Shown here in pieces: positions 3,978 through 8,314 of a DNA stretch of 27,999 bases. The DNA is taken from contig CAYSRH010000001.1 in assembly GCA_964433245.1 (NCBI GenBank), positions 1 to 27,999 of the forward strand. Reading direction: 5' to 3'. Position 1 is the stretch's first letter, and each line of letters opens with the position of its first letter. Below the pieces are notes generated by a model. It made no database searches. It was not told where the DNA came from and saw nothing but the letters and a program-made list of their open reading frames with translations. The translations under genes and the position numbers were made by a program. The stretch comes from an uncultured Bacteroidales bacterium. GTDB lineage: Bacteria; Bacteroidota; Bacteroidia; Bacteroidales; JBBRXJ01.

Positions 3978-4556
3978 TCATTCAACATCCTCCTTGTCAA
4001 TAATTCCATTCAGGACTGCATAAATGGTAAGGGCAGGGACAGACTTGATATTGAGTTTGGCACAGATGTTTTTTCGGTGCGAAATAACTGTGTGCATGCT
4101 GATGTTAAGTTCGTCGGCGATCTCTTTATTGAGTCTGCCTGTGCAAACCAGTTTCAATACTTCCTCTTCTCTTAGAGACAAAACCTTATCGTGCTGACGT
4201 TTATTCTCCGGCTCTTTTCCCCAGTATTGCTTGAGAAAATTTCCAATTTCATGGTAATTGGCAGAAACAGGGATTACCAGATGGGTGTCATGCTCATATA
4301 TTTGGGGTTTGGTAGGCACCTCGGCGACCAAAACAACTGTTTTATCGGTTTGGGATCGCAACATATCAGCATGTTGAAGCCAGGTGGAAGCATCGACAAA
4401 AAGCAAACCCACAGCCTCGCCATCCTCTTCGAAATCAGCAACGGTTTCATACGCTACCACTGTTTGCACGTTGAGATACTCTTTGCAAAGTGCTTTCAGC
4501 GCAAAAACAAACAGGCTGTTGCGGGAAATAATGGCGACATTGCTATTTCTTTCCAT
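3978..4556 (-). CDS. LuxR C-terminal HTH regulator with a degenerate receiver-like N-terminus
   Basis: C-terminal LSLREEEVLKLVCTGRLNKEIADELNISMHTVISHRKNI is a LuxR HTH. The N-terminal beta1 reads VAIISRNSLF and lacks the usual acidic pair. Confidence 0.88.
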   Translation of the reverse strand: MERNSNVAIISRNSLFVFALKALCKEYLNVQTVVAYETVADFEEDGEAVGLLFVDASTWLQHADMLRSQTDKTVVLVAEVPTKPQIYEHDTHLVIPVSANYHEIGNFLKQYWGKEPENKRQHDKVLSLREEEVLKLVCTGRLNKEIADELNISMHTVISHRKNICAKLNIKSVPALTIYAVLNGIIDKEDVE

Positions 4557-5283
4557 ACTTGCGTTTTATTTGTTTTTCCAGATCACGCACCAAAGGCACC
4601 ATAATCTTTTCTTCAACCTGTGTATGATTTCTTAAATCCTTATCAAAACGAGATAACTCAAATATCAGCGTATGCATTTCCCTTTCTGAAAAGTCGCAAC
4701 TCAGATAGCGAATTATCAGGCTCTTTAAGTCCGAAATTTTGGTTTCCACATCATCATGTTCGTCCCGGAAGCGATCCATGCTGTAGTTGCTGTATTGCTT
4801 TGCATGTTGCTGAAACCCGGCTTCAGATAAGTCTGCTTTTTCCAGACTAAGAATATAGGGAAAAGTAGTATCTTCTTCTTGTTGCAGATGAGTAAATAAC
4901 TCTGTTTTATAGTCATTAAAAAAAACACGAATCATATCATGGCTTTTACATTGGTCCTTACAATGCGCAAAAATGCTTTGCAGCATCGCTTCAATACCAA
5001 TTACATAAACCTCACGAAAATAATTATGCGCCTGTTGCAAAAATGCAATGATGTCATCTAAGCGAAAACGCTTACGGGTTAGGTCCGGCATGTATTGCTC
5101 GTTGAGGTAGGTGTTTAACATGGCCAGAAAGAAATCATGGTCAATGTCATACCCACGACAAATTTCCTCTATTGTTTTATCCCCAAAATTAAAACGCACA
5201 CCAAAGCGGTTAATAAAGGGCAGGATAAAGCTATCCCTGTCGATGACTTCCGCTATCTTATCTTTGGACTGTATGAGGTTCAT
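4543..5283 (-). CDS. Hemerythrin-domain protein (RIC/ScdA-like)
   Basis: N-terminal ScdA_N-like segment (RFGVRFNFGDKTIEEICRGYDIDHDFFLAMLN) and di-iron motifs AHNY, HLQQEE, EHDD and HTQVEE. Confidence 0.85.
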   Translation of the reverse strand: MNLIQSKDKIAEVIDRDSFILPFINRFGVRFNFGDKTIEEICRGYDIDHDFFLAMLNTYLNEQYMPDLTRKRFRLDDIIAFLQQAHNYFREVYVIGIEAMLQSIFAHCKDQCKSHDMIRVFFNDYKTELFTHLQQEEDTTFPYILSLEKADLSEAGFQQHAKQYSNYSMDRFRDEHDDVETKISDLKSLIIRYLSCDFSEREMHTLIFELSRFDKDLRNHTQVEEKIMVPLVRDLEKQIKRKYGKK

Positions 5284-5367: not shown

Positions 5368-6051
5368 TTATCTGGCATAGGCACAATCTTTCTGATTACA
5401 TAAGTGGCAGGTATAGTTGTTATACTTAACATTCCGTCCGACGCCAATCATCCCGCTTACCGACTTAATAGGAGTCATCAAAGCTGAATCGTTCAAGGTG
5501 ATTCCTGATCTGTTATTCGGAAAATAGCGAAATAATTTATGCTGCTCATCTACTGGCCACTTACAATATCCGGGGCTGTATTTATTGGTGGTTTTCAGAC
5601 CTTGTTTTGCTGCCTCTTCTGCGATGACGTTGTGTGCATAGGTTGCCACTTGTTCGGCCAATACAGAACCTATCGTATCAGCCACATAAGCAATGGCAGG
5701 ATCATTCTGTAAGTGACATTGTTTGATGTATGCCTCTGCTTTACTGCCGGTGGTACTGATAAAGAAGACAACTTTTTCAGACTTCTTCAACAAACTGAAA
5801 ATGACCTTGTTAACAGAGAATGAGGCCGTAGGAGTAATAATTTGATGTGTTTCTTTCTCCCACCTGACTTCATTTTCTTCAATCCACTCGACATGAAATT
5901 CAGTTAGCGAGAATAACTTCTTCGCTACAGTCTCAATATAAGACGAAAAAGGTTCTGTTACAGATTCAAGGTTCTCAAAACCCATAATCTGAGCTATCTC
6001 ATGCAAAGGAATGTTATGAGCATGACCTTTTATATACTTTGGTTTTTCCAT
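5368..6051 (-). CDS. Stand-alone B12-dependent methionine synthase activation (reactivation) domain protein
   Basis: KYSPGYCKW...EQHKLF and GITLNDSALMTPIKSVSGMIG match the SAM-binding SPGY and LT...MxPxKSVS motifs; C-terminal CHLCNQKDC. Confidence 0.85.
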   Translation of the reverse strand: MEKPKYIKGHAHNIPLHEIAQIMGFENLESVTEPFSSYIETVAKKLFSLTEFHVEWIEENEVRWEKETHQIITPTASFSVNKVIFSLLKKSEKVVFFISTTGSKAEAYIKQCHLQNDPAIAYVADTIGSVLAEQVATYAHNVIAEEAAKQGLKTTNKYSPGYCKWPVDEQHKLFRYFPNNRSGITLNDSALMTPIKSVSGMIGVGRNVKYNNYTCHLCNQKDCAYAR

Positions 6052-6950
6052 TGTTTATTTAGTAAAAAAATATCAGCAAGCATCTGCTGATGTCCTGCTT
6101 CACTAATGGCAACGAGCTCTGTTCCACCTGTATAAGCACTTAAAGGAACGTTCGTTTCCTGATCAAAACTTTTTTGTACCATAAGCGCACTGTCCCTGCC
6201 AATCTTGACTACTCCTTTCACCCTCAAACAAGACGAAGGAATTTGACTAAAAAACACATCTGCATTAAAAGAGGGGTATATATAAGGAGTTTGGTACACA
6301 GCAGTACAAATGAGAGGTCTTTTTTCAGGAACTCCCTCTATTTTGTGTTGACTTAATCTTTTTTCCCAGAGTGATTCCATTTCATGAGCTGGTATTTTAC
6401 ACCAGTCTGTAACACACTGTCTGGCCAAAGGATTAAGTTGAGACAATAAAGTTTGTAAAGGTTCCACAGGATTAATCCCTTCTGCCTTATTGATAATGAT
6501 CAGGTCAGCCACCTGGATCTGATGCTTTACACGCATGTTAACACGTGCCAGATTCTGTATATGGTTGGCATCAACAAGAGTCCATACTTGTTGTAAATAA
6601 GCCTTTTGGCTGAGTGGTTTTTGTGCGAAAGATTCTGTTACAGCGATGGGGTCAGCCAGCCCGGAAGCTTCAATAATCAATAAATCCGGCTTATGTTTGT
6701 CGATAAAATCAGCCGATTGCGTAATAAAGGAAGCCAATTTGCAAACACAAAAAAGCGAGCCGTTATTTACTTCCAGCACTGTAAGTTCATCAAATTCTCG
6801 ACTTAGCTCAGCACTGTCAACATTGACGGGTGCAAAATCATTTTGTACAATGGCAATTTTTTTATTGTTTCCATAGCTGCGCAATATCTCTTTTAAAAGT
6901 GTTGTTTTACCACTTCCTAAAAACCCTGTAACCAACAAAATAGGAACCAT
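6030..6950 (-). CDS. COG0523/CobW-like G3E P-loop GTPase (putative metallochaperone)
   Basis: LVTGFLGSGKTT (Walker A), metal motif NGSLFCVC, IEASGLADP (Walker B ExxG), QIQVADLIIINKAE, and CobW_C-like LRVKGVV. Confidence 0.88.
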   Translation of the reverse strand: MVPILLVTGFLGSGKTTLLKEILRSYGNNKKIAIVQNDFAPVNVDSAELSREFDELTVLEVNNGSLFCVCKLASFITQSADFIDKHKPDLLIIEASGLADPIAVTESFAQKPLSQKAYLQQVWTLVDANHIQNLARVNMRVKHQIQVADLIIINKAEGINPVEPLQTLLSQLNPLARQCVTDWCKIPAHEMESLWEKRLSQHKIEGVPEKRPLICTAVYQTPYIYPSFNADVFFSQIPSSCLRVKGVVKIGRDSALMVQKSFDQETNVPLSAYTGGTELVAISEAGHQQMLADIFLLNKQWKNQSI

Positions 6951-8314
6951 TATTTGGTCTTGTTTTTGATGTAATTGTTAATTGTTTCTTGCAGCTTATT
7001 CATTGTGGGAATCTGTGAGATAAACTCAACATTTCCATCAATGCAGATTGTGGGAATATTTTTCACCCCGAGAGAAGCCATCATTTGCACACCATCACGA
7101 GACTTGATGCTGTGCTCCTGCCAGCTTACATGCTCCTCGTTTCCTTTTATCGCATTTTTCACAGCTTCTACCATATACTGACAAGGTGCGCAAGAAGAAG
7201 AATCCAGCGTAATAATATCCACCACCACTTTTTTGTCTTTCCACCTCTGCGACAAATCAAGCATTTCCACCTTTTGTTGTTCTGTTATTTTCTTCGCTCT
7301 AACCACATCTTGCAAGTACGGGTCTTTGACCAATTCTGATACCGCTTTCAGGTTTTTAACCGGCGTATCCATAGGCAGATCACATCCAGGAGCAAGTACA
7401 AAGCCTTTAGCTCCTGCCAGGTCCATGCATTCCAGAGCATCTCTTCGGGAGTCATCCTCGTCACCCATTAACAAAACAACTGTCAGTTTCATGTTACCGC
7501 CAAAGCTGACATTGCTTTTTATTGCGATATCCCTGACATAGTCGAGAGGGATATTCTCATCAATAGATATATTGTCAGGTTTACAGGCGCACATGGCTTC
7601 AATGTTATGCTGTGCATGTCCGCAAACAAAAAAAGAACTTAATGCTTTGGCTTTTCTGATGTGCGAAAACAAGGCGACAGCATGGGGCGACACATAGGTT
7701 TCGAATGAAAAGGGATCAATCTGGCTGGTCATTGGATCCACCACGGCAATGATATCGCAACCCGCTTCAATGTACCAGTCAGCCATAGACATCGCCACAT
7801 GATTACAAAAATCAAGCACGGCATTTGTTTTCTCGGGATCCTCCATCATCTTGATGAATATGTCTGTGCCCATAAGATGGAGAGCCAGGGTAAAAGGACC
7901 CGTAATCAATCCATATATTGCCAGGTCAGGGTAAGCTTCACGGATTCTTCTTGTTGCCTCCATGACAAGTCCGATACGACCTGTTTTACTATCGGGCAAG
8001 TTTAGGCTGCTCAATTCTCTGCCTTCCATCAAAGGATGAGATATTACTGCAGGCGGATTGTCATCAGCCCAGGCCAATGCACATCCCAGGGCTTCGGCCT
8101 CAATCTGCAAATCAAATGTAACCGGGATTCCATCAGGTTTATAAAGATTTACTGCTTCTGTCACCGCATCAACTATATAATCCGAAGATTGTAAATATTC
8201 GGTTGCTGTTTTGTTTATCAGCTTAGCTCCATGGACACCAATAAAAGGCACCCAAGGGGTTCTATCCACATCCTCTAACTTAAATGCTTTGTGTATTCTC
8301 TGTTTTCCAGTCAT
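6950..8314 (-). CDS. MtaA/CmuA-like (URO-D superfamily) corrinoid methyltransferase fused to a C-terminal thioredoxin-like CxxC domain
   Basis: MTGKQRI...DRTPWVPF, DLQIEAEALGC, ITGPFTLA, VVDPMTS, FVCG, GGN and LAPGCDLP are MtaA/CmuA-type motifs. The last ~90 aa contain CAPC and NIPTICIDG (thioredoxin fold). Confidence 0.85.
   Translation of the reverse strand: MTGKQRIHKAFKLEDVDRTPWVPFIGVHGAKLINKTATEYLQSSDYIVDAVTEAVNLYKPDGIPVTFDLQIEAEALGCALAWADDNPPAVISHPLMEGRELSSLNLPDSKTGRIGLVMEATRRIREAYPDLAIYGLITGPFTLALHLMGTDIFIKMMEDPEKTNAVLDFCNHVAMSMADWYIEAGCDIIAVVDPMTSQIDPFSFETYVSPHAVALFSHIRKAKALSSFFVCGHAQHNIEAMCACKPDNISIDENIPLDYVRDIAIKSNVSFGGNMKLTVVLLMGDEDDSRRDALECMDLAGAKGFVLAPGCDLPMDTPVKNLKAVSELVKDPYLQDVVRAKKITEQQKVEMLDLSQRWKDKKVVVDIITLDSSSCAPCQYMVEAVKNAIKGNEEHVSWQEHSIKSRDGVQMMASLGVKNIPTICIDGNVEFISQIPTMNKLQETINNYIKNKTK

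Follow-up and report, generated by a model that had tools for sequence, protein, structure and literature searches.

The window analysed here, a stretch of 27,999 nucleotides at the start of contig CAYSRH010000001.1 from an uncultured Bacteroidales bacterium, contains a six-gene co-directional run that extends on the minus strand from position 11321 to position 5368. Its last gene encodes P0001, the protein under study. The genes of the run and two motifs within P0001 are:

10305..11321, minus strand: GntR-HTH regulator, the first gene of the cluster (PF00392, 54 bits; a weak periplasmic-binding-protein-like match to PF13377, 20.6 bits, is below the cut-off)
9037..10293, minus strand: divergent URO-D-family methyltransferase of 418 aa, candidate substrate-side enzyme (PF01208, 62 bits)
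8334..8999, minus strand: corrinoid protein of 221 aa with B12 cap and B12-binding domains (PF02310, PF02607), the presumed client
6950..8314, minus strand: MtaA-like URO-D methyltransferase fused to a thioredoxin-like domain (PF01208, 204 bits, and PF13192)
6030..6950, minus strand: CobW/COG0523-like GTPase (PF02492, 129 bits)
5368..6051, minus strand: P0001, stand-alone short MetH-type activation (AdoMet-binding) domain of 227 aa, the last gene of the operon (PF02965, 1J6R by sequence and fold, homolog clusters)
5563..5586, minus strand: (R/K)xxxGY AdoMet motif and fourth conserved Cys of P0001, K156-Y-S-P-G-Y162-C163 (alignment with the genome's MetH)
5383..5409, minus strand: C215-x2-C218-x4-C223 tail of P0001 (same spacing in 190 of 191 homologs)

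The open reading frame of P0001 (5368-6051, minus strand) gave a stop-free translation of 227 aa and is overlapped by the CobW-like gene (6030-6950) by 22 nt. The corrinoid protein carries the D-x-H-x-x-G motif, present as GDLHDIG in its translation, and is the only stand-alone B12 cap-domain protein of the genome. The URO-D enzyme at 9037-10293 occupies an orthologous position in two Sunxiuqinia loci (L078 and L082), and the URO-D::thioredoxin fusion also occurs in related operons. Scanning for sigma-70 promoters and terminators yielded nothing above shuffles. The hemerythrin/RIC-like and LuxR genes downstream of the run (3978-5283) were considered as conserved partners and rejected, as a hemerythrin homolog adjoined the activation-domain gene in none of the 86 related loci and a LuxR homolog lay beside it only in L017; these genes were treated as a separate unit. 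A TAnnTTTG-like box is present in the 84-nt gap after the activation-domain gene.

P0001 matched the Pfam family Met_synt_B12 (PF02965) over residues 90-214 with 41.8 bits (cut-off 25), and the same family was matched by all 19 members of an alignment of homologs that are 30-42% identical to P0001 (alignment A1). None of the curated cut-offs of NCBIfam was reached, the best results being weak partial matches to whole-MetH models, and the P0001 subfamily is without a curated family model. The sole sequence match in the PDB was 1J6R, which is TM0269 of Thermotoga maritima (E 1.2e-5). An AlphaFold2 model built from 19 homologs had a mean pLDDT of 88 and was weak only in the last ~17 residues, where the Cys tail was of low confidence (pLDDT 60 and 49). 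When this model was submitted to Foldseek, 1J6R was again the top match (E 8.5e-11, TM 0.67/0.75), followed by 6BM5, 1MSK, 8SSD, and 2O2K, all of which are MetH activation domains (E. coli, Thermus, human).

The SPGY of P0001 comprises residues 159-162, and the segment K156-YSP-G161-Y162 aligned with R-P-A-P-G-Y-P of the genome's own MetH. The AdoMet-binding motif of the MetH activation domain, R-x-x-x-G-Y, begins with Arg in most homologs and with Lys in P0001; RYSPGYC or RFSPGYC was found in 152 of the homologs. Considering that P-G-Y, E169, L-F, and S-V-S-G are common to the subfamily and canonical MetH in the alignment, the AdoMet pocket has probably been retained. As regards membership in the radical SAM family, P0001 gave no PF04055 match and its cysteines are spaced C-x2-C-x4-C, not C-x3-C-x2-C. 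Nor did the Pfam search find in P0001 an ASKHA ATPase domain (PF14574) with an Fe-S ferredoxin domain.

The cysteines of P0001 proved to be a constant property of its relatives. Among the 191 homologs retrieved (~30-50% identical), 190 carried C-x2-C-x4-C in the C-terminal half, every one of them with the x4 spacing, and the single homolog without it has a truncated C-terminus. The conservation of the Cys tail is far beyond chance. In alignment A1, the invariant columns include S-P-G-Y, C163, C215, C218, and C223. The residue after (S/G/A)PGY was Cys in all but three of the homologs examined, C163 being replaced by Ser in P0139, Trp in P0152, and Ile in P0191. These three sequences have an extra Cys located 6, 15, and 4 residues past the third tail Cys, respectively, and such an extra downstream Cys was thus present in 3/3 homologs lacking C163 versus 3/185 others (Fisher 1.8e-5, the sequences being kin). 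In a FastTree tree of 184 members, all three were placed within one 9-tip clade, and each grouped with sequences that have C163 and lack the extra Cys, with moderate supports (0.31-0.89); these separate groupings suggest three independent relocations of the fourth ligand. In the canonical activation domain of MetH from the same genome (L001), the C163 position holds Pro and the Cys tail is missing. From the invariant tail, together with the loss of C163 being matched by a new tail Cys, we conclude that C163, C215, C218, and C223 form one predicted four-ligand metal site.

A preliminary description of this DNA had taken the 227-aa product for a stand-alone MetH activation domain, which is borne out by PF02965, 1J6R, and Foldseek, and the translation confirms the positions it gave for SPGY and the three tail cysteines (C215, C218, C223; 5383-5409). 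It had also described a Cys triad and named an alignment of homologs as the check on it. The alignment agreed with that description as far as the tail is concerned, which is conserved in 190/191 homologs, but the set is a tetrad that includes C163 beside the AdoMet motif.

The source assembly is a MAG of 579 contigs that is 88% complete. A search of the genome returned just two B12 cap domains, those of MetH and of the corrinoid protein at 8334-8999. MetH is broken by the assembly: the Hcy and B12 portion is cut off by the end of C326, and the activation domain, which is canonical (393 bits), starts at the first base of C88. Relatives encode a full-length MetH in open frames of 1225-1250 aa that include the activation domain. 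Therefore, the sole stand-alone corrinoid protein and the sole stand-alone activation domain of the genome stand in one operon, and MetH, which has its own domain, does not need the latter.

The distribution of the four-Cys protein was then surveyed in 151 Bacteroidales genomes, which were searched with the A1 profile, the RACE domain PF14574, and the corrinoid protein; as these genomes are kin and form a sample, the counts are descriptive. A stand-alone corrinoid protein (open frame of 218-241 aa) was present in 29 of the 151 genomes. The four-Cys protein was found in 23 of these 29 genomes (in six of them together with RACE), RACE only in three, and neither in three, so that 26 of the 29 had one or the other. 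When no stand-alone corrinoid protein was present (122 genomes), the four-Cys protein occurred twice, in both cases in a genome with a B12-binding domain in a long ORF, and RACE was found in none; all three RACE-only genomes have corrinoid proteins. The proportions of 23/29 and 2/122 indicate that the four-Cys protein follows corrinoid proteins. The survey shows that it is the commoner of the two candidate activators in this order and is not exclusive of RACE.

It had been claimed in the preliminary description that the domain belongs to the corrinoid operon and that it apparently replaces the ATP-dependent activase. The presence of MetH's own activation domain (C326/C88) supports the former claim. 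The latter agrees with the finding that no RACE ASKHA domain (PF14574) was found in this 88%-complete genome, nor was RACE detected in 19 of the 25 Bacteroidales carriers, several of which are 99-100% complete. However, RACE co-occurs with the four-Cys protein in 6/25 carriers and in one operon (L085), and the replacement is not universal.

Relatives of P0001 are numerous. A phmmer search of 1.84 billion cluster representatives returned 158 clusters at E<=1e-30, a number that rose to 1,222 at E<=1e-10, with homolog lengths of mostly 205-260 aa. A motif-seeded scan of GTDB species genomes gave at least 591 confirmed loci, of which those listed were mostly from Bacteroidota (Prolixibacteraceae, Rikenellaceae, Odoribacter, Bacteroides, and Sunxiuqinia), and Ignavibacteriota, Chloroflexota, and Cytophagales were also represented among the matches listed. 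Where the sources gave a name, it was 'methionine synthase', 'activation domain-containing protein', or 'hypothetical protein'.

In the 86 related loci, ORFs were called and labelled by phmmer against the window proteins, and unlabelled neighbours were assigned by Pfam. The activation-domain gene was callable in 82 loci and was typically the last in a same-strand run, with a gap to the upstream gene of commonly -4 or -13 nt. A gene for a corrinoid protein of ~222 aa was present in 59 of the 82 runs, and such operons begin with it; most runs without it were cut by contig ends or by the 400-nt gap rule, or contained only a methyltransferase gene. At least five kinds of methyltransferase were found among the operons, which were of the following types:

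Type a: Hcy S-methyltransferase (PF02574), often followed by a URO-D enzyme
Type b: URO-D::thioredoxin, with or without Hcy S-methyltransferase, followed by CobW
Type c: pterin-binding protein (PF00809) and MTHFR with DUF5981
Type d: SusC/SusD, followed by the corrinoid protein and then a pterin-binding protein
Type e: the type of the window, also found in cultured Sunxiuqinia elliptica and S. rutila (L082 and L078), with a rhamnose mutarotase gene inside the run
Type f: methanol-type system with MtaB (539 bits), one case (L085)

The occurrence of one accessory gene across operons with such varied methyl donors and acceptors is consistent with a generic role in cofactor maintenance. A redox partner encoded nearby was considered and rejected, as neither a ferredoxin nor a flavodoxin gene was found among the annotated flanking genes of the related loci; the genome itself has flavodoxin-like genes.

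Several of these operons had further features of their own. The type f run (L085:2238-8663, a Bacteroidales MAG) contains the corrinoid protein, an MtaA-like URO-D protein, MtaB, CobW, RACE, and the four-Cys protein. The type c operon, with the corrinoid protein, the pterin-binding methyltransferase, MTHFR with DUF5981, and the four-Cys protein, recurred in L025, L041, and ~25 similar loci, which often lie beside genes for a sugar kinase (FGGY), a GFO/IDH/MocA oxidoreductase, and DUF6807. In L014, a corrinoid-related B12-binding domain (L014:1325-1906, G027:C2:48839-49399) lies inside an open frame of ~1000 aa, 8 kb from the URO-D and activation-domain pair, and may belong to a fused corrinoid enzyme.

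Genes of carbohydrate metabolism flank many of the operons, as in L014, L013, L016, L030, L078, and L082, including those for GH141, L-fucose isomerase, GH43, GH97, and SusC/SusD, and these loci are further flanked by rhamnose mutarotase, sulfatase, and GH76-like genes. The GntR regulator of the window has a weak match to a sugar-sensor-like domain. The substrates of the methyltransferases may be methylated sugars.

Fusions of the four-Cys domain were also encountered. P0113 (530 aa, a single cluster) joins a CobW-like GTPase with GCVCC to a four-Cys activation domain; it may represent a genuine fusion, or else two overlapping genes joined through a frameshift artefact. In P0192-P0195 (~650-660 aa, one of them from Prevotella sp.), the four-Cys domain is fused to a HemW-like radical SAM haem chaperone through a low-complexity linker, with SPGYC and the CxxCx4C tail intact, and one of these clusters has 1165 members. 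PF04055 in the Prevotella fusions was confined to the separate HemW half. The HemW fusion was rejected as a functional clue, HemW and the four-Cys protein being unlinked in 151/151 Bacteroidales genomes.

Corrinoid methyltransferases stop when Co(I) is oxidised. Repair is known to proceed by two routes, one through the AdoMet domain of MetH, acting in cis with flavodoxin, and one through RACE/RamA at the expense of ATP. Judging from the features shown above, namely family and fold, conserved motifs, place in the operon, and phyletic association with corrinoid proteins, we propose, with a probability of roughly 0.6, that P0001 is an in-trans factor of AdoMet-dependent reductive remethylation with a built-in metal site, which acts on the 221-aa corrinoid protein of its operon. 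When the cobalt of this client is oxidised to Co(II), P0001 would dock on the uncapped B12 domain, and AdoMet would be bound through the (R/K)xxxGY pocket. With the methyl group of AdoMet and one electron, methyl-Co(III) would then be regenerated, as in MetH, where the C-terminal domain performs this task in cis; the predicted route of the electron would lead through the four-Cys metal site (C163, C215, C218, and C223), perhaps an Fe-S centre. In MetH, Co(II) is converted to methyl-Co(III) with an electron from flavodoxin and the methyl group of AdoMet, the B12 domain being uncapped, His-off, and docked to the AdoMet domain (PMC10293825). As the core motifs are kept in P0001 and its client has both the cap domain and the His of D-x-H-x-x-G, the same chemistry may be expected on the corrinoid protein of the operon.

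Three clustered cysteines and one remote Cys are a common 4Fe-4S pattern (FNR, WhiB). The C-x2-C-x4-C spacing of P0001 is that of the first three cysteines in the RnfB-like PF04060 domains of its own genome, which holds four true domains of this family (C-x2-C-x4-C...C 4Fe-4S, RnfB/CoFeSP type). The tail gave no profile match to PF04060 even at E 10; its identity as a PF04060 FeS domain was therefore rejected, and the spacing of the first three cysteines is an analogy only. Since the site adjoins the AdoMet motif, a relay of electrons to cobalt would be useful there, which is a point for Fe-S. The COG0523 GTPase family is known for the delivery of Zn or Co, and the adjacent GTPase of this type leans toward a mononuclear metal. 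We slightly favour a low-potential Fe-S site that brings in the electron, with a structural Zn(Cys)4 site nearly as likely.

A full alternative can be built on zinc, and we regard it as somewhat unlikely. P0001 would have the same reactivation role, but the four cysteines would bind Zn in a structural site, taking the place of the C-terminal helices found in canonical MetH. The electron would be supplied by an external flavodoxin or ferredoxin, in the manner of E. coli MetH, and the CobW-like GTPase may load the Zn. This alternative is favoured by the position of the CobW-like gene, which immediately precedes the activation-domain gene in 19 of the 20 loci having one, and by the fused arrangement in P0113. 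The only Pfam match to the tail was a weak one to the zinc-knuckle (E 0.02), PF04060 being unmatched as noted, and the flavodoxin-like genes of the genome are also in its favour. However, the clustering of three cysteines with one remote Cys resembles the 4Fe-4S pattern, 62 of the 82 operons are without a CobW gene, and the local CobW subfamily has lost CxCC: the GTPases of the window and the 19 related loci have GS(V/L)FCVC in place of GCxCC. The CobW copy in the RACE-containing operon L085 retains GCICC.

In-trans remethylation by P0001 also admits a bolder, tentative version, in which the four-Cys subfamily might represent a third type of corrinoid reactivase, one that is self-contained. 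An electron taken directly from a low-potential donor would reach Co(II) through an Fe-S cluster next to the AdoMet pocket, and AdoMet would trap the Co(I). If this were true, many modular B12 methyltransferases of anaerobic Bacteroidota and other phyla would be repaired independently of ATP and flavodoxin, and the divergent COG0523 GTPase might gate or mature the four-Cys protein in some operons.

The four-Cys protein could instead be an adaptor or co-factor for another reductase, namely RACE where it is present, holding the corrinoid uncapped and His-off or trapping Co(I) with AdoMet while carrying no electrons. In L085, RACE (ASKHA ATPase and ferredoxin domain, L085:6424-7908) adjoins the four-Cys gene, and RACE is enriched in carriers of the four-Cys protein (6/25 vs 3/126); its presence in this operon and in these six carriers would be odd if the four-Cys protein were self-sufficient. 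The 19 carriers without RACE, among them the nearly or fully complete genomes, indicate that the protein must work without RACE in most cases, and a mere adaptor is thus improbable.

It is more improbable still that the AdoMet site is degenerate and that the protein serves in redox or metal sensing or as a chaperone loading the corrinoid cofactor. The change of the motif Arg to Lys in P0001, the MetAct::HemW fusions in Prevotella, and the G3E-type GTPase neighbour would suit such a role; the conservation of P-G-Y, E169, L-F, and S-V-S-G with canonical MetH speaks against it. Least probable of all is a detached reactivation subunit of methionine synthase itself, as in the TM0268/TM0269 arrangement, merely lying beside the operon: TM0269 is the closest solved relative and a stand-alone Hcy S-methyltransferase occurs in many related operons, but a spare part for MetH was rejected because the genome and its relatives have a MetH with an activation domain of its own, the operon of the window has no Hcy-binding or pterin-binding module, and the four-Cys protein tracks stand-alone corrinoid proteins.

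Compared with known systems, P0001 is closest to TM0269 (1J6R), which is likewise a short (~200-230 aa), stand-alone MetH AdoMet domain with xxxGY kept. In TM0269, the C163 position is occupied by Gly and the Cys tail is absent, the chain stopping 8 residues beyond the last strand in the alignment. It reportedly adjoins and serves the core MetH gene TM0268, acting in trans in a split methionine synthase, whereas P0001 is encoded in a URO-D/corrinoid operon of a genome that has a complete MetH, activation domain included. The C-terminal activation domain of MetH (E. coli 1MSK/1K7Y, Thermus 8SSC, human 2O2K) has the fold core and the AdoMet motif in common with P0001; the latter is smaller by ~100 residues, lacks a fused B12 domain, and bears the four-Cys site where MetH has its C-terminal helices. 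RACE/RamA/RACo fills the same niche as P0001, that of an accessory gene in corrinoid methyltransferase operons, but RACE is an ASKHA ATPase with a ferredoxin domain, while P0001 is an AdoMet-domain protein with no ATPase and no homology to RACE.

Stand-alone activation domains (TM0269) are already known, and so is their clustering with non-MetH modules. A stand-alone AdoMet activation protein was noted from genomes in MttB-type clusters of other phyla in 2022 (PMC9324843). The passage concerned deals with MttB-type clusters and makes no mention of cysteines; in the operons described here, the partners are a CobW-like GTPase and enzymes of the URO-D family. The modular systems that have been characterised rely on RamA, with DUF1638 in addition in the proteobacterial case (PMC12478193). 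Our search of the literature, of incomplete coverage, returned no description of the Cys tetrad and no biochemistry on the four-Cys subfamily. The idea is directly testable, as cultured carriers of the four-Cys protein exist (Sunxiuqinia elliptica and S. rutila).

These results suggest that many anaerobes, especially Bacteroidota, may rely on a detached MetH-type module, equipped with a metal centre of its own, for the repair of their stand-alone corrinoid proteins. Reconstituting the host pathways, possibly including O2-independent demethylation of sugars, will probably need the four-Cys factor.
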